Below, one piece after another: positions 23,208-60,084 of a stretch of 64,000 nt of DNA. Numbering within the stretch: the stretch's first letter is position 1; the number at the start of each line of letters is the position of its first letter. This DNA is from Lachnospiraceae bacterium (lineage in GTDB: Bacteria > Bacillota > Clostridia > Lachnospirales > Lachnospiraceae), in NCBI GenBank assembly GCA_017542245.1, contig JAFXXN010000016.1, forward strand, positions 25,711-89,710. Direction: 5' to 3'. The position numbers were made by a program, and so were the translations under genes. The notes beneath the pieces are model-generated. The model did not search any database. It was not told the DNA's origin and was given only the letters and a program-made list of their open reading frames with translations.

Positions 23208-25082
23208 ATGTCTTTGTTTGGAGATCTTAATGTTGGAACATCCGGACTTAAAGTAAATCAGTACGGACTAAATGTAGTTGCGCACAATTTGGCAAATGTG
23301 GATACCGCCGGGTATGTGAGACAACAGGTAGTGCTTGATACCGCAGTTGTCACCAAAATCGGGGGGAACGGTTTATCTACCTTTCAGGTAGGACTGGGCG
23401 TGGATCCGCAGGTTGTCAGACAGGTGCGCGACTTTTTTTTGGATACGGCATACAGATCAGAGGTTGGCAGACACGGATATTATGATTCACAGGCAGCAGC
23501 CGTAAGGGAAATAGAAGGCCTTTTCGGAGAAATCAGCGGAGTTGCATTTCAGGATACATTGTCAGATCTGTGGGTATCAATGCAGGAGCTTTCAAAAGAG
23601 CCCGACAGCCGTGTTGCACAGGCAACATTTATTGAAAACGGCGTAACTTTCCTTGAGAGAGCAAACAAGATATATACTGAATTAAAAAACTATCAGAAAG
23701 ATTTAAATGTTCAGATAAGAGACCAGATAAAAAGAATAAATGAAATAGGCGAAAGCATCAACGAGCTTAATCAGCAGATAGCTAAATTTGAAGGTGACGG
23801 CAGAGAGCATGCAAATGACTTAAGAGATGCAAGAAACAATCTGCTGGATGAACTCGGGCAGATGGTAAAGATAGATTACCAGGAAATGAACAGCGGCAAA
23901 GTAGTAGTAAATGTGGAAGGTGTCCAGTTTGTAAGTGAAGATTTCTATTATGAGATGGGCACTATGACCATGGCAGACTATTATGATGCAAATCCGGACT
24001 ATGATTTACATCCTGAATATGACGATGAAGGTAAACGTAAATCAAAACAGTTGGATGAATGTGCAGACATCCTTATGGCGGTATGGCCACACCTCGGAGG
24101 CAGGGATGTATTTGATCTGGCAACAAGCGTTCCGTCTTCAACAGCAAACAGTGATATAGGAAGTTTGAAAGGAATCATTCAGGCAAGAGGAACAAAAGTC
24201 GGAAAGTATACCGACATCCCTATTGAACCTAAACGTGAAGACTTCCTTGATGAGGACGGGGAATTTGATGCCGAAGGATTTGAAGAAGCAGTAAAACAGT
24301 ATGAAAAGGATACTGATGAATATAATTTAAGAGTTGAATCTTCTATAGTAATGAGGACACAGGCACAGTTCGATCAGCTGATACACGGTATTATCACCAC
24401 GATAAACGATACGCTTTGTCCGAATACAACATATGAGCTTGAAGAAGATATCACATTACCGGACGGAAGAACTTATGAAGCCGGTTCAAAGATCAAGATA
24501 CTGGATATAGAAAATGCTCCTGTCGGAGTAGATAAGGACAAAACCTTAGCTACCGAATTCTTCTCAAGAAAAACTGTAGAAAGATATTCGGAAGTGACAT
24601 TAGCGGACGGAACAACTATATATGTTTATAATGAGGAAGACGCAAAAGATAATTACTCCATGTTTACATTAGGTGAAGTTGAAGTAAATCCCACATTGCT
24701 TGCCGACAAGTCAAAGCTCCCGATAATGTCCCCAGACAGAAGCGGAAATTATGACATAAAAGCAATACAAAGCCTTATGGAAAAGTGGCAGGAACCGTTT
24801 GCAACATTGTCACCCAATACATTAACATTTAACAATTTCATGGGTTACTACAATCAGTTTACCGGAAGCATAGCTACGAAGGGAGACGAGTTCAATATCC
24901 TTTCGGAAAATCAGAAAGCCATGGTAGATTCCATAGAAGATAAACGTACCGGAGTGACCGGAGTTTCTTCAGATGAAGAACTTACTTATCTGATAAAATA
25001 TCAGCAGGCTTACAATGCTTCTGCAAGATACATAAACGTAATAGATGAGATGCTTGAGCATGTTATAGAGAGACTCGGTTAA
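23208..25082 (+). CDS. flgK: flagellar hook-associated protein 1 (FlgK), copy 1
   Basis: N-terminal rod/hook motif (GTSGLKVNQYGLNVVAHNLANVDTAGYVRQ) and C-terminal motif (EELTYLIKYQQAYNASARYINVIDEML). Confidence 0.85.
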   Translation: MSLFGDLNVGTSGLKVNQYGLNVVAHNLANVDTAGYVRQQVVLDTAVVTKIGGNGLSTFQVGLGVDPQVVRQVRDFFLDTAYRSEVGRHGYYDSQAAAVREIEGLFGEISGVAFQDTLSDLWVSMQELSKEPDSRVAQATFIENGVTFLERANKIYTELKNYQKDLNVQIRDQIKRINEIGESINELNQQIAKFEGDGREHANDLRDARNNLLDELGQMVKIDYQEMNSGKVVVNVEGVQFVSEDFYYEMGTMTMADYYDANPDYDLHPEYDDEGKRKSKQLDECADILMAVWPHLGGRDVFDLATSVPSSTANSDIGSLKGIIQARGTKVGKYTDIPIEPKREDFLDEDGEFDAEGFEEAVKQYEKDTDEYNLRVESSIVMRTQAQFDQLIHGIITTINDTLCPNTTYELEEDITLPDGRTYEAGSKIKILDIENAPVGVDKDKTLATEFFSRKTVERYSEVTLADGTTIYVYNEEDAKDNYSMFTLGEVEVNPTLLADKSKLPIMSPDRSGNYDIKAIQSLMEKWQEPFATLSPNTLTFNNFMGYYNQFTGSIATKGDEFNILSENQKAMVDSIEDKRTGVTGVSSDEELTYLIKYQQAYNASARYINVIDEMLEHVIERLG

Positions 25083-25123
25083 AATTGCTTAAGCAGATAA
25101 AGGTAATAAACGGAGGTGGGTAT

Positions 25124-26959
25124 ATGGCTAATACATTTTTCGGACTTACAATAGGAACTACAGGATTGTATGGTGCGAACCTTGGTATTAATACAACCGC
25201 ACATAATATAACAAATGCCGAAACTGAAGGGTATTCCCGCCAGGTATTAAAGACACGTGCCGATACAGCGTTAAAAGCTAACAGCACTTACGGTATGATA
25301 GGAACCGGATTATCGGTTTACAGTATAAAGCAGATCAGGGATAATTATTATGATGAGAAATTCAGAAGCAATAAATCTCTTTCAGGTTTCTATGATGCCC
25401 AGGACTATTATATGAAGTCTATAGAAGGATACTTCAACGAAATACAGCTTGAAGGCTTTAACAGTAACTTTAACTATTTCTGTGACGCACTTCAGGAACT
25501 TTCGAAGGATCCGTCAAGCTTAGCAGTACGTACTCAGGCAAACAACTACGCACAGAACCTGTGTGATTATATAAACTCACTGAATACGAGCTTAGAGCAG
25601 CTACAGGACAGTACAAACTTTGAGATAAAAACCATGACCGATCAGATAAACTCATATGCAGCTCAGATAGCCGGATTAACAAAACAGATAAATACTCTGG
25701 AAGTAACCGGTTCGGTAGCAAATGACTTACGAGATCAGAGAAACCTGCTTATAGATGAATTATCGGGCATAGTTGATATAACAGTAAGCGAAAAAGTTCT
25801 CGGTATAGATGAAGTAGGAGCTACCGAATACATCGTAAGGATCGGAGATGCGGTACTTGTTGATACATATGACTGGAATTCCCTGCATGTAGTTCCGAGA
25901 GCCGAGAAGATAAATCAATCCGATGTTGACGGTCTATATGAGATAGAATGGATAAGCGGCCAGCGTTTTGACGGATTGCACAGCGGCGGAAGAATGCAGG
26001 CACTCTATGAAGTAAGAGACGGAAACAGCGGCCAGTATTTCTTCGGAAGTGCAACCGGAGCCGCGGGAACCAAGACCATAACAGTGACCGATTCAAGCAT
26101 CAACAGTGTGGATAAACTTCACATACCAGAAAGCGGAACCATCGTTATCGGTGACAAAGAGTACATATATACCGGTTTTAAAGTTACGGATGAAGATGGG
26201 GACGGATCTTATGAGTATGAGTTTTCTCTTGAGAAAGAGCTTGTTGCCGATTATGATAATTCAGAAGTCAGGATCGGACAACATATATCATATAAGGGAA
26301 TAGCCTACTATATGGCTCAGCTGGATGAATTTACCAGAACATTTTCAAGGGAATTCAATGATATACATACATCCGGAAAAGACATGGACGGAAATGACGG
26401 ACTTGATTATTTTAACTCCATGCAGAAAGCAACCGGGAAGAATTATGTATTCTATAATACAGAAGAAGCAGATGATTATGACGGCATAATAATATCCAGT
26501 AAGACCGGAGATTATGCAGTTGATGATGAAGAAGAAAACTACGGAAGTTATTACTTCATGACAGCTAAAGGATTCTCTGTAACAAAAGACGTATACAGCG
26601 ATCCCCATAAACTGGTAACAGCTACGGATATAACAGACGGAATAGAAAAAAGCGATTTAGTTGAAAAGTACGTGGAATTAAGAGACAAAAACATGTTCCT
26701 TCAGGGAACACCTCAGGGATTCCTTCAATCGCTTGTGGCAGAGCTCGGTGTAGACGCCCACAAGTCAGAAAACTTCAGCAAAAACCAGAGCGACATTGTA
26801 GATGCAATCGTAAATCAGCGTCTCTCAGTCTCGGGAGTAGACATGGACGAAGAAGCCATGAACCTCGTCCGCTACCAAAACTCCTACAACCTCGCCGCAA
26901 AAGTCATCAGCACCATGAACGAAATCTACGACAAACTCATCAACTACATGGGCGCATGA
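25124..26959 (+). CDS. flgK: flagellar hook-associated protein FlgK family, copy 2
   Basis: The start is at MANTFF, after GGAGGTGGG. It shows the motifs GTTGLYGANLGINTTAHNITNAETEGYSRQ and EEAMNLVRYQNSYNLAAKVISTMNEIYDKL. Confidence 0.8.
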   Translation: MANTFFGLTIGTTGLYGANLGINTTAHNITNAETEGYSRQVLKTRADTALKANSTYGMIGTGLSVYSIKQIRDNYYDEKFRSNKSLSGFYDAQDYYMKSIEGYFNEIQLEGFNSNFNYFCDALQELSKDPSSLAVRTQANNYAQNLCDYINSLNTSLEQLQDSTNFEIKTMTDQINSYAAQIAGLTKQINTLEVTGSVANDLRDQRNLLIDELSGIVDITVSEKVLGIDEVGATEYIVRIGDAVLVDTYDWNSLHVVPRAEKINQSDVDGLYEIEWISGQRFDGLHSGGRMQALYEVRDGNSGQYFFGSATGAAGTKTITVTDSSINSVDKLHIPESGTIVIGDKEYIYTGFKVTDEDGDGSYEYEFSLEKELVADYDNSEVRIGQHISYKGIAYYMAQLDEFTRTFSREFNDIHTSGKDMDGNDGLDYFNSMQKATGKNYVFYNTEEADDYDGIIISSKTGDYAVDDEEENYGSYYFMTAKGFSVTKDVYSDPHKLVTATDITDGIEKSDLVEKYVELRDKNMFLQGTPQGFLQSLVAELGVDAHKSENFSKNQSDIVDAIVNQRLSVSGVDMDEEAMNLVRYQNSYNLAAKVISTMNEIYDKLINYMGA

Positions 26960-27047
26960 GGGAGATGCTCGTGCAGGTGAGACAGATTTTTATCCGGGAC
27001 GTTATGTGCTTGCACATATAAGGACCGGTAATAAATCTGGCTCATAA

Positions 27048-27212
27048 GCGAAGCGTTGACCGAACGGACATCCTCAGACAAAAGTGGCTTTAGCCACGAC
27101 GGACGCGAAGCGGACGGTCTGAGGGATGGGCGGGCGGTCTGCACGAGCTATGGACGGTCTGAGGCTTGGGCGTGAGGCGGATCAGTTATGCTAGGGCGGA
27201 CGGTCTGACGGA
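27048..27212. repeat. GC-rich degenerate repeats (GGACGGTCTGA units with 20-bp phasing) in the flgK'-flgL spacer
   Basis: Units start at 27112, 27132 (variant), 27152 and 27198. CGAAG-loop mini-hairpins sit at about 27048 and 27104. Hairpin GTGGCTTTAGCCAC is at 27084-27097. CCTCAGAC (27072) is complementary to GTCTGAGG (27117). Confidence 0.7.
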
Positions 27213-27242
27213 TCAATAAAACACAATTTTAAGGAGGCCACT

Positions 27243-28802
27243 ATGAGAATCACCAATAAAATGATGACCAACAATATGCTCTCGAACATAAATATAAATA
27301 AAAACCATATGTCTACTTTGGAGAATAAATATGCTTCGGGCATGGAGATCCAGAAGCCTTCAGACGATCCTATAGTAGCTGTACGTGCCCTGAAACTTCG
27401 TACAAACCTTTCAGAGCTGACCCAATATTATAAGAAGAATATTCCTGATGCAAAATCATGGATGGAATCAACCGAGAGCGCATTAAGAAACACATCAGAG
27501 GTAATTACCCAAATACATACCTACTGCGTACAGGGTGCAAACGATACCCTTACGGAATCAGAGAGAAAGAGCATAGTAGAAAACCTTTTGGGGCTTAAGG
27601 CACAGGTATACCAGGAAGGAAATTCAAACTATGCCGGAAGATATCTCTTTACCGGTTATAAGACCGATACAAGTTTGGTTTTTGAGGAAGCGGAAACAAA
27701 AATTAATTACAAAATAACAGAAACATTTAAACCTTCCGATATCGAAATATCCGACAGGATAATAGATTCTTTCCTGATGGATGATGTTACGGCAGACACA
27801 CTTGGAGATATCGAGATAGAAGACAGACCGACCTCCACGACTATATATCGTATAAGACTTTCATATGATAAACTGAAGAGCATTGATGACGGAGGAAGCT
27901 TGTCATTAAAAATCCCGGCTACCGATGAAAACGGAGAAATAATCAAGGACGATGAAGGTAACGTAGTGTATGAAGAAGAACTCTCAGAAGATGATTTTGT
28001 TGTAATGACTTCTGATAATCCTAATGCATATAAGTTTGCCGAAGGAGAAGAAAACGAGATCCATTTCATAGAAGATACCGGAGAGATAATTATGGGTCCC
28101 GGATTATATAATGAATGGCGTGACAAAAATTTCGAGATAACATACGAGAAGGAATCCTTCGAGAAAAACGAATTAAGACCGGAGCACTACTTTACATGTA
28201 CAGCTACTGACTTAACGCTTGATGAGGATGAAAGGGAAGAAAAAGCTATACATTATACGGTAGAAGATCAGCAGATAGCTTATGAGATAAACTTTAACCA
28301 GCGTTTGGCTATAAATGTTCAGGCAAAAGATGCTTACAGGCATTCACTCGGAAGAGCGATAGACGATATCGTAAAAGCAATTTCGGACGTGGAAGCTGTA
28401 AAGGAAAAGCTGAATAAAGTAAACAAGATGCTTGAAGATACTTATCTTGATGATGAGCAGATATCAAAGCTTAAAGAAATAAAAGGAGTTCTTGAATCCG
28501 AACTGGACCTTAAGGACAGTCTTATGAGGGATTCATACGGAAGAGGACTTACTGCGATGCAGATGGAAGAAAATCTTGTAAATTCCGCAACCAGTGATAT
28601 AGGAACGCGTTACAGCCGTATAGAGCTGACCGAGGACCGCTTAAGCACACAGCAGGTTGAATTTACGGATCTTCTTTCACAAAACGAAGACGCAGATCTG
28701 GTTGATACTATTGTAAATTACAACGCTGCAAATACTGTATATAACGCTTCACTTCAGGCAGCAGGAAAAGTAGTCAAGAACACACTGCTTGATTTCCTGT
28801 AG
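27243..28802 (+). CDS. flgL: flagellar hook-associated protein 3 (FlgL), long form
   Basis: Flagellin-N-like N-terminus MRITNKMM..., the motif SGMEIQKPSDDPIVAVRALKLR, and a conserved C-terminal helix. A large central insertion brings it to 519 aa. Confidence 0.85.
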   Translation: MRITNKMMTNNMLSNININKNHMSTLENKYASGMEIQKPSDDPIVAVRALKLRTNLSELTQYYKKNIPDAKSWMESTESALRNTSEVITQIHTYCVQGANDTLTESERKSIVENLLGLKAQVYQEGNSNYAGRYLFTGYKTDTSLVFEEAETKINYKITETFKPSDIEISDRIIDSFLMDDVTADTLGDIEIEDRPTSTTIYRIRLSYDKLKSIDDGGSLSLKIPATDENGEIIKDDEGNVVYEEELSEDDFVVMTSDNPNAYKFAEGEENEIHFIEDTGEIIMGPGLYNEWRDKNFEITYEKESFEKNELRPEHYFTCTATDLTLDEDEREEKAIHYTVEDQQIAYEINFNQRLAINVQAKDAYRHSLGRAIDDIVKAISDVEAVKEKLNKVNKMLEDTYLDDEQISKLKEIKGVLESELDLKDSLMRDSYGRGLTAMQMEENLVNSATSDIGTRYSRIELTEDRLSTQQVEFTDLLSQNEDADLVDTIVNYNAANTVYNASLQAAGKVVKNTLLDFL

Positions 28803-28958: not shown

Positions 28959-29429
28959 ATGAAAGTAAAAACAAGGCACTTTGGGGAAGTTGAGATCGAT
29001 GAGAGCAAGGTTATCACCATGGATAACGGTCTGTTTGGATTTGAGAACTATAAGAAATATATTCTTCTCTATGATTCAAGCACAGATGAGATCCCAAGTA
29101 TCCAGTGGCTTCAGAGCGTAGATGAGGAACTTCTGGCACTTCCTGTTATGATTCCTACCACTATTGTTCCGGAGTATAACCCTGTAGTTGATGATGAATA
29201 TCTGGAGAACCTTGGCGAGTGGACCGAAGATACACTGTCCATACTTGTTACGGTTACCGTACCGATAGATGTTAAGAATATGTCCATCAACCTTAAAGCG
29301 CCCATCGTTATCAACACTGCAACAATGAAAGGCGGCCAGGTAGTAGCTGAGAATTCTGATTACGAAGTAAAATATAAGATTCATGATCTGCTTGAAGCTG
29401 CCAGAAAGAAGAAGGAGGAGGAAGGCTGA
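28959..29429 (+). CDS. fliW: flagellar assembly factor FliW
   Basis: The FliW signature N-terminus is [29 protein letters not shown]. It is translationally coupled to csrA. Confidence 0.9.
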
Positions 29430-29653
29430 TGCTGGCATTATCAAGGAAGACGAATGAATCAATTATGCTCGGCAATGACATAGAAATAACTGTTCTTGAA
29501 ATAAAAGGAGATCAGGTTAAGATAGGTGTAAATGCACCAAAGAGTGTGGCTATATTCAGAAAAGAAATATATGTCCAGATTCAGGAAGAGAACAAGAAAG
29601 CGGCTGAGCAGCAGGTTGACAGGGATACTATCGAAAAATTATTTAAAATTTAA
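29429..29653 (+). CDS. csrA: carbon storage regulator CsrA
   Basis: [48 protein letters not shown] is a near-canonical CsrA sequence. Confidence 0.95.
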
Positions 29654-31864: not shown

Positions 31865-31870
31865 TAAGCT

Positions 31871-31960
31871 TTCCCCTTAAGGGGATTATCTCTACCACGA
31901 AGTGGTTGAGATGCCTCACTGGCGAAGTGAAGGTGGCTGCGAAGCAGCCGGATGAGGTGT
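31871..31960. repeat. structured intergenic repeat, copy A (GAA-triloop hairpin family)
   Basis: It contains the palindrome TCCCCTTAAGGGGA, an 11-bp stem ATCTCTACCAC-GAA-GTGGTTGAGAT, the hairpin GGCTGC-GAA-GCAGCC, and the tail GGATGAGGTG. It is near-identical to 49580-49666. Confidence 0.85.
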
Positions 31961-32084
31961 AAATTTCCTTAACCAGTATATTAAATTATGTACATACCCT
32001 CATATTTTATGGGGGTATTTTTATATCTCATTCTGCTATAGAAAAACTTCTGAAAAAAAAGAAGAAAAAAGTCTCAGAACGGTA

Positions 32085-49579: not shown

Positions 49580-49666
49580 TTCCCCTTGAGGGGATTATCT
49601 CTAACACGAAGTGGTTGAGATGTCTCACTGGCGAAGTGAAGGCTTAAGAAGCAGCCGGATGAGGTA
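49580..49666. repeat. structured intergenic repeat, copy B
   Basis: It aligns with 31871-31960 over its whole length with few substitutions. Confidence 0.85.
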
Positions 49667-59983: not shown

Positions 59984-60084
59984 CTTCCCCCTCGAGGGGA
60001 AGGTGACCAAACGAAGTGAGGCCGGATGAGGTGTTACAATCATATATACCTCATCTTTCAGCTCCTTCTCAAGGGGAAGCTTTG
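59984..60084. repeat. structured intergenic repeat, short copy C plus inverted partial copy
   Basis: CTTCCCCCTCGAGGGGAAGGTGACCAAACGAAGTGAGGCCGGATGAGGTG, then ACCTCATC...CCTTCTCAAGGGGAAG in the opposite orientation. Confidence 0.7.

Follow-up and report, generated by a model that had tools for sequence, protein, structure and literature searches.

Here we argue that positions 26967-27148 of the window (the whole 64,000-nt stretch of Lachnospiraceae DNA that was analysed), in the spacer between the flagellar genes flgK2 and flgL, are probably occupied by a diverged, vertically inherited, structured non-coding element of ~175-185 nt, MITE-like in character, which has been either tolerated by the host or exapted as a cis-acting RNA module. 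The family to which this element belongs, dispersed in Lachnospiraceae of the rumen and the gut, is a new sub-family, sister of the Rfam Clostridiales-1 RNA motif (RF01699). On present evidence, the structured element is real and strongly supported, is ordinary in kind, and is not the CsrA decoy that had been considered in the original prediction.

The spacer and its setting

The spacer lies in a row of late flagellar genes (Table 1) and is 283 bp long, as had been stated, from the flgK2 stop codon at 26957-26959 to the flgL ATG. Its GC content is 0.57 at 27000-27199 compared with ~0.37-0.42 in flgL, so that the description of it as GC-rich holds relative to the downstream gene but has to be softened on the other side, where the last 250 nt of flgK2 also stand at ~0.50. 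Two neighbouring FlgK-type genes of 624 aa each fill the interval 23208-26959 of the window, and this gene pair is kept in relatives, with a second, weak FlgK match upstream in L037, L041, and L057. A promoter and terminator scan of 26700-27400 found neither a sigma-70-like promoter nor a terminator on the plus strand; the apparent terminator of the minus strand is merely hairpin P4a of the fold described below. Two small open reading frames in the spacer (39 aa on the plus strand and 66 aa on the minus strand) were rejected as coding, the conservation consisting of helix covariation and loop indels and not being codon-like.

Table 1. Genes and structural parts of the flgK2-flgL spacer and its surroundings (window coordinates)
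Feature	Position	Strand	Comment
flgK-like gene	23208-25082		Late flagellar gene row
flgK2	25085-26959	+	ORF with FlgK_D1 and Flg_bbr_C domains
flgK2 stop codon TGA	26957-26959	+	
SD-like word GGGAGAT	26960-26966	+	AGGGAG or AGGTAG in orthologs (spacer alignment)
P1 closing stem, 5' strand	26967-26976	+	Pairs with 27139-27148
P2 long hairpin	26978-27044	+	Module in common with Clostridiales-1 RNA
P2 helices	26979-26989/27033-27043 and 26994-27000/27022-27028		
P2 apex	27003-27018		
P3 short GAA-loop hairpin	27045-27057	+	Weak in G000; GCUGC-GAA-GCAGC in relatives
P4 rod domain	27060-27137	+	Invariant purine-rich internal loops
P4 5' strand, CCGAACGGACA...	27060-27079		
P4a hairpin GTGGC-TTTA-GCCAC	27084-27097	+	Compensatory swap relative to GTGCC...GGCAC in four relatives
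P4b	27100-27116	+	CGGACG/CGGACG helix, tandem G-A loop, CGC-GAA-GCG cap
P4 3' strand, GTCTGAGG...TGGGCG..GG	27117-27137		
P1 closing stem, 3' strand	27139-27148	+	
3' extension	27149-27213	+	Partial duplicates of the P4 3' strand
P4 3' strand, copy 2	27150-27177		Unit originally described as phased
P4 3' strand, copy 3	27196-27213		Unit originally described as phased
Linker, flgL Shine-Dalgarno (SD), spacer to ATG	27214-27242	+	A-rich, unstructured linker; AAGGAGG at 27231-27237
flgL	27243-28802		ATG at 27243
fliW	28959-29429		
csrA	29429-29653		
flaG and fliD			Same late flagellar gene row as csrA

Structure of the element

The first 182 nt of the spacer (26967-27148) form a closed multi-stem fold, for which the RNA of the source genome of the window (G000, a 4.7-Mb assembly) has a minimum free energy of -117.3 kcal/mol (z = -7.2). 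In the alignment of the six orthologous copies over their first ~182 nt (alignment A1), the consensus structure comprises 58 pairs, of which 28 have changed on both sides. The closing stem P1, a 10-nt perfect inverted repeat in G000 that begins 8 nt after the first base of the flgK2 stop codon, has a different sequence in every ortholog and always retains its pairing: all seven modelled pairs are kept in the six orthologs, five of them having changed on both sides. The long hairpin P2 has the apex CAAGCUUGCUUG in G007, G026, G001, and G006, altered to ..GUGCUUGCAC.. in G000 and the metagenome contig L062; its CAAG-CUUG-CUUG cap is found in relatives and in true RF01699 copies alike. The rod P4 is the most conserved part of the element, with 88% identity to G026 over 90 nt; its strands, CCGAACGGACA... 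and ...UGGGCG..GG, hardly vary, with two small hairpins lying between them, and the GGA that follows P4b is retained across the wider family.

Most of the pairings noticed originally turned out to be parts of this fold. Both the GTGGC-TTTA-GCCAC hairpin at 27084-27097 and the complementarity of CCTCAGAC (27072-27079) to GTCTGAGG (27117-27124) are present and belong to helices that covary in relatives. As to the two proposed mini-hairpins, CGC-GAA-GCG (27104-27112) caps a covarying helix, and AGC-GAA-GCG at ~27047 is a weak version of a hairpin that relatives form better. The word GGGAGAT, which precedes P1, could be left over or duplicated from the ribosome-binding site that flgL had originally, as the empty junctions of relatives, which read stop-AGGAGGTCACT-ATG, would suggest. 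The present flgL SD and the bases downstream of it are identical to those of relatives with an empty junction.

Repeated units had been described as well, in a 20-bp phase. The unit GGACGGTCTGA does occur exactly at 27112, 27152, and 27198 and as a variant at 27130-27147, and three exact matches compare with 0.47 expected for the whole window, but the spacings are 20, 20, and 46, and Tandem Repeats Finder reports no array. The words recur as a result of duplication of the element's own 3' strand: the 3' extension contains two further, partial copies of the P4 3' strand, and copies 1, 2, and 3 form duplexes with the P4 5' strand at -29.8, -22.5, and -15.4 kcal/mol, respectively. Comparable partial duplicates are found in G006, G007, L062, L113, and G177, so what looked like a designed 20-bp phasing is partial duplication, to which the family is prone.

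A dedicated regulatory RNA, either a riboswitch-like sensor or an independent small RNA, with the extra copies of the 3' strand switching flgL expression, could be seen in the complexity of this junction fold with its invariant internal-loop bases, in the capacity of copy 2 to pair with the P4 5' strand in place of the native partner, and in the recurrence of extra UGGGCG-bearing copies in G006, G007, L062, and G022. Such a role nevertheless appears improbable to us: orthologs differ in how many extra copies they have and in what form, the scan described above found no promoter or terminator, there is no match to an Rfam family, and relatives of the element stand beside unrelated genes, with up to ~9 copies per genome in the genus and 15 in a genome of another Lachnospiraceae genus (G177), where the near-identical and nested copies are what one expects of repeats, not of sensors.

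A dispersed repeat family

The covariance model built from alignment A1 (hereafter R1) finds five flgK-flgL copies at 175-191 bits and ~45 full-length copies elsewhere at 30-68 bits, in 20 of the 27 sister genomes. G000 itself yields no R1 match beyond the flgK-flgL copy. In agreement with this, the spacer is single-copy in G000 by BLAST (short words included), sharing at most chance words of 14-18 nt with the rest of the genome. Outside the genus, R1 matches occur in 15 of 150 other sampled genera of the family Lachnospiraceae, and in one of these, G177, there are at least 13 near-identical full copies (84-101 bits) with conserved inverted ends. Pattern scans of genome and metagenome collections returned the same rumen Lachnospiraceae loci and a new metagenome variant, L062; the other matches were dismissed as high-GC chance matches.

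Among 27 members of the family, 55 of the 58 pairs have changed on both sides and 92.5% of the cells are paired as compared to 35-40% with slid partners, values that no shuffle attains, with the reservation that this alignment was fitted to the model structure and therefore leans towards it. In the family alignment, G-U and U-G combinations number 57 and A-C and C-A combinations 16, an excess that favours an RNA of the plus strand.

At their ends, the dispersed copies carry conserved inverted repeats, GTTACTATTC(A/G)C.. with its complement (also written GTTACTATTCAC..), which constitute their P1. The terminal word occurs 60 times in G177 as compared to 6 times for a control; nested copies exist in this genome as well, as do deletion derivatives. 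The P1 of the G000 copy bears no resemblance to the terminal repeat of the family. Of 12 young G177 copies, one lies between direct repeats of 10 bp that are A-rich, and no clear target-site duplication is seen at the others. The flgK-flgL copies are flanked by an AGGGAG word on the left and AGGAGG on the right, which could represent a decayed target duplication. No transposase or insertion sequence with matching ends was found beside the G177 copies or among IS1182-like elements, in what are fragmented metagenome-assembled genomes (MAGs). The IS1182-like elements of G001 and G007 were considered as the autonomous partner and rejected, the ends not being in common: two end-resolved copies in G007 have different inverted repeats, and the word ACTATTC is paired around the transposase gene at none of the six IS1182-like loci examined. 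We call the family MITE-like on account of its inverted ends, its copy number, the nested and deleted copies, and its patchy distribution, from one copy in G000 to ~9 in relatives of the same genus; no consistent target-site duplication was found.

The copies of G177 neighbour housekeeping genes (rho, prfA, prmC, an ABC transporter, and similar), and other sites of the family include those after tsf, between yicC and rpoZ, between a dGTPase gene and dnaG, after a phosphofructokinase (PFK) gene, between fliE and fliF, and after fliS. Copies in flagellar operons are seen at L100 (G023), L102 (G011), and L096 (G015:C1), between fliE and fliF in two species and after fliS in a third; with 3-4 independent flagellar contexts among ~17, an excess is possible but statistically weak. 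One copy, seen in two species (L112:1421-1492 and L095; G006 and G003), starts 8 nt after a tRNA gene.

The alternative option in the original prediction, that the spacer contains a member of a dispersed, hairpin-rich repeat, was right in kind and wrong in class. The GAA-hairpin repeats with which it had been grouped (31869-31962, 49580-49666, and 59984-60030) belong to a different family of ~94 bp with ~25-30 BLAST copies in G000, several of them partial, and this family shows no BLAST similarity to the flgK-flgL spacer and no R1 match.

Relation to the Clostridiales-1 RNA

A search of the whole window against Rfam at the gathering cut-offs returned nothing relevant, and RF01699 does not match the window at 26000-28000 at E <= 10, nor, even at this E-value, any of the six orthologous flgK-flgL copies. 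However, six dispersed copies of the family give full-length RF01699 matches at 27-36 bits, below the gathering cut-off of 48 bits. When RF01699 is aligned to a family member, P1 and P2 fit well and the 3' half fits poorly; it is on account of its different 3' domain that the flgK-flgL copy obtains no score. Conversely, R1 does not match the true RF01699 copies of G000, of which there are five, at 50-112 bits, with the same P2 apex.

The features in common are a multi-stem fold of ~170 nt closed by the stem P1, a long P2 hairpin with a GCUUGC apex (CUUG tetraloop) as its cap, which the comparison of the apices bore out, GA-rich internal loops and GAA-type loops, dispersal in multiple copies in the same genomes with partial tandem duplicates, and a start that is often at or just past a co-oriented stop codon. 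The difference lies in the 3' domain, which in the flgK-flgL element is the single rod P4 with the apical hairpins P4a and P4b; the 3' hairpins of RF01699 itself (a UGAG...CGAA rod and an GGAUUGCGGGAG... hairpin) are absent.

A composite locus in G007 (L113:1497-1883, contig C57) joins the two: a full R1 copy is followed by the 3' hairpins of RF01699 at 56.6 bits, above the cut-off, and then by a partial R1 copy that ends in the same terminal repeat. This locus demonstrates an exchange of modules between the R1 family and RF01699. Of 28 genomes of the genus, 26 have RF01699 in multiple copies, with as many as 34 matches. Genome G013 has 34 matches and G016 has 22, including short tandem arrays (e.g., G016:C12:60483-60894); 11 copies with identical scores in G016 point to a recent amplification of the RF01699 repeat. 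Three of the five true RF01699 copies in G000 (C59:4769, C46:1786, and C179:57020) start between -3 and +2 nt from a co-oriented upstream stop codon, with the stop in or against the closing stem.

In the 2010 table entry, the only published statement on Clostridiales-1 that we found, the motif is listed as occurring in Clostridiales and in the human gut and as a probable RNA that was not judged to be cis-regulatory and is of unknown function (Weinberg et al. 2010, PMC2864571).

History of the flgK-flgL junction

In the relatives compared, which are MAGs of uncultured rumen Lachnospiraceae of the same genus, the flgK-flgL spacer ranges from 3 to 325 nt. The homologous insert is carried by five species and by L062. 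The junction also exists in an empty form, with flgK and flgL contiguous and only 3-28 nt between stop and ATG. In the FlgL tree, the six bearers fall within one clade of eight (support 100/99), and the empty junctions of G015 (stop, 11 nt, ATG) and G011 (3 nt) are nested in this clade; in about seven other species, stop and ATG are 3-28 nt apart. Most simply, this tree reads as a single ancient gain with two precise losses. In G022 and G025, more distant relatives of the element are found.

Between bearers, the identity at four-fold sites of flgL is 0.33-0.45 for 14 of the 15 pairs, which is essentially saturation, and 0.61 for the closest pair, G001 and G006. The identity of the element core between bearers, 0.56-0.80, is well above that of the silent sites, which argues for a fold under constraint; to say, as had been proposed, that the repeat was inserted by chance undersells a copy that has been inherited across species and conserved to this degree. 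Part of the similarity may, judging from the trees and identities, be due to exchange rather than to constraint in place: the elements of G000 and L062 are 0.80 identical with a FlgL amino-acid identity of 0.67, and the element tree is not fully congruent with that of FlgL.

The same junction holds unrelated inserts in other species: about a dozen AT-rich 22-bp tandem units at L023 (G013), AT-rich repeats of ~40 bp at L012 (G016), and a purine-rich stretch of 205 nt at L022 (G012). Given these inserts, the flgK-flgL junction is a permissive site.

The older copies of the family are in the sense orientation and lie 2-11 nt past a co-oriented stop codon. Between co-directional genes, ~10 older copies are sense and 1 is antisense, as compared to 2 sense and 3 antisense among the young copies of G177, counts that derive from crude open reading frame calls and include a few orthologous pairs. 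The bias in old copies and its absence in young ones can be read as orientation-blind insertion followed by orientation-dependent retention.

Could the element be a neutral relic, i.e., a dead selfish repeat without any effect on the host, the fold of which persists only because the sequence of the family is intrinsically self-complementary? The mobile, dispersed behaviour of the family, the species that do without the element, including the nested G015 and G011, and the permissive nature of the site all fit this possibility. Yet the core is more conserved than flgL four-fold sites in all pairs but the closest, P1, P2, and P4 have changed their sequences while keeping their pairing, as the double changes attest, and the older copies, unlike the young ones, are almost all sense. 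A relic of this kind is, in our estimation, rather unlikely. A copy that is older than the split of the species and has evolved far more slowly than silent sites has probably been tolerated or exapted as a cis-acting RNA module.

GGA triplets and CsrA

When a structured segment with several GGA triplets is found in the same operon as csrA, 2.2 kb upstream of that gene, a CsrA-binding RNA comes to mind, that is, a multi-GGA segment that would titrate CsrA or let CsrA control flgL or fliW-csrA. The resemblance is to CsrB and RsmZ, in which several GGA triplets are likewise found in a structured non-coding RNA, here one genetically close to csrA. Also on this side are the 12 GGA triplets in 283 nt and the GGA words retained in orthologs, namely, AAGGA in P2, ACGGACA in P4, and GCGGA after P4b; AAGGAC, moreover, resembles the BS1 site of Bacillus subtilis hag.

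The count itself, however, is unexceptional. Thirteen GGA triplets had been claimed upstream of the flgL SD; there are 11, and one more in the SD makes 12 in the spacer. The spacer can hardly be called GGA-dense, 8.0 +/- 2.3 triplets being expected from base composition (p ~0.06-0.07), and no significant GGA enrichment was detected in the spacer of any relative tested. Nor do the triplets sit in loops as CsrA sites would be hoped to: unlike in CsrB and RsmZ, only 1 of 12 lies in a hairpin loop, 3 are fully paired, and 6 belong to CGGAC-type 2x2 purine loops inside helices, with the first G paired and the G-A in the loop. CGGAC is the over-represented word of the spacer, and the repeated GGA words are by-products of the duplication of the P4 3' strand. 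Further differences from CsrB and RsmZ are that the element has no promoter or terminator of its own and that the family elsewhere is not linked to csrA, its members also occupying non-flagellar junctions. Close relatives that have csrA lack the element. On present evidence, the GGA triplets appear to be mostly structural purine-mismatch motifs and not CsrA sites. The sponge or flgL-control option thus has no specific support, and we regard a CsrA-binding RNA as very improbable.

A probably tolerated or exapted RNA module

Taken together, the fold, the family, and the history of the junction suggest the following scenario. In the ancestor of a single clade within the rumen genus, the element would have entered the few bases that separated the flgK2 stop codon from the flgL ribosome-binding site, and its 3' side would later have been extended by partial duplication of its own 3' strand. 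Since it is in the sense orientation and has no promoter or terminator of its own, the element is most likely transcribed within the flgK2-flgL(-fliW-csrA) mRNA, where it may be processed. Once transcribed, the element would fold into a compact, self-closed module, and selection could maintain this fold for either of two reasons. A self-contained structure may simply leave the flgL ribosome-binding site free. Alternatively, exaptation may have turned the element into a cis-acting RNA module much like REP, ERIC, Correia, and BOX repeats, in which case it would probably uncouple the translation of flgL from that of flgK2 and, as a processing site or barrier, would determine how stable the two halves of the transcript are relative to each other.

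Dispersed, structured repeats of this general type are well represented in other bacteria. The bcr1 element of the Bacillus cereus group is dispersed, non-autonomous, transcribed, and ~155 bp in length; compensatory changes of base pairs keep its fold at the RNA level, and its distribution varies between relatives (PMC3184786). The element described here is likewise a dispersed Firmicutes repeat with compensatory changes and a variable distribution, and its transcription is likely on the grounds given above; its sequence and fold are unrelated to those of bcr1, and the 5-bp direct repeats that flank bcr1 have no consistent counterpart in this family. The Correia element (CREE) of Neisseria, ERIC of enterobacteria, BOX of pneumococcus, and REP/BIME are described as small structured repeats, often located between cistrons and co-transcribed with their neighbours, that can alter mRNA processing or stability (PMC2649163, PMC3049150, PMC3184786). 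In particular, CREE is reported to bind RNase III and to be cleaved or protected by it (PMC2649163), and BIME clusters containing REP units can affect mRNA stability (PMC3184786). None of these repeats is related in sequence to the element considered here, which folds as a branched junction and not as a simple hairpin, and for which an effect on the mRNA is a prediction.

A stronger version of exaptation holds that the old sense copies between flgK and flgL, between fliE and fliF, after fliS, and elsewhere form an exapted module in which the CCGAACGGACA/UGGGCG loops bind a protein, possibly CsrA or a ribonuclease, and the 3' copies allow alternative folds. We consider this version doubtful; if it were true, late flagellar operons would have enlisted a mobile structured RNA for the tuning of their expression.

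Implications

The idea of a CsrA sponge in a Firmicute, unsupported as it is, can be removed and replaced by a sub-family related to the orphan Clostridiales-1 RNA, and the data further support the view that what Rfam lists as a 'small RNA' is the body, in folded form, of a dispersed repeat. Among the copies of the family, the old ones persist in the sense orientation, just past stop codons, inside operons, and under structural constraint. The family therefore offers a tractable case for seeing how bacteria live with structured mobile RNA between cistrons or put it to use, for which the filled and empty flgK-flgL junctions of sister species constitute a natural experiment.
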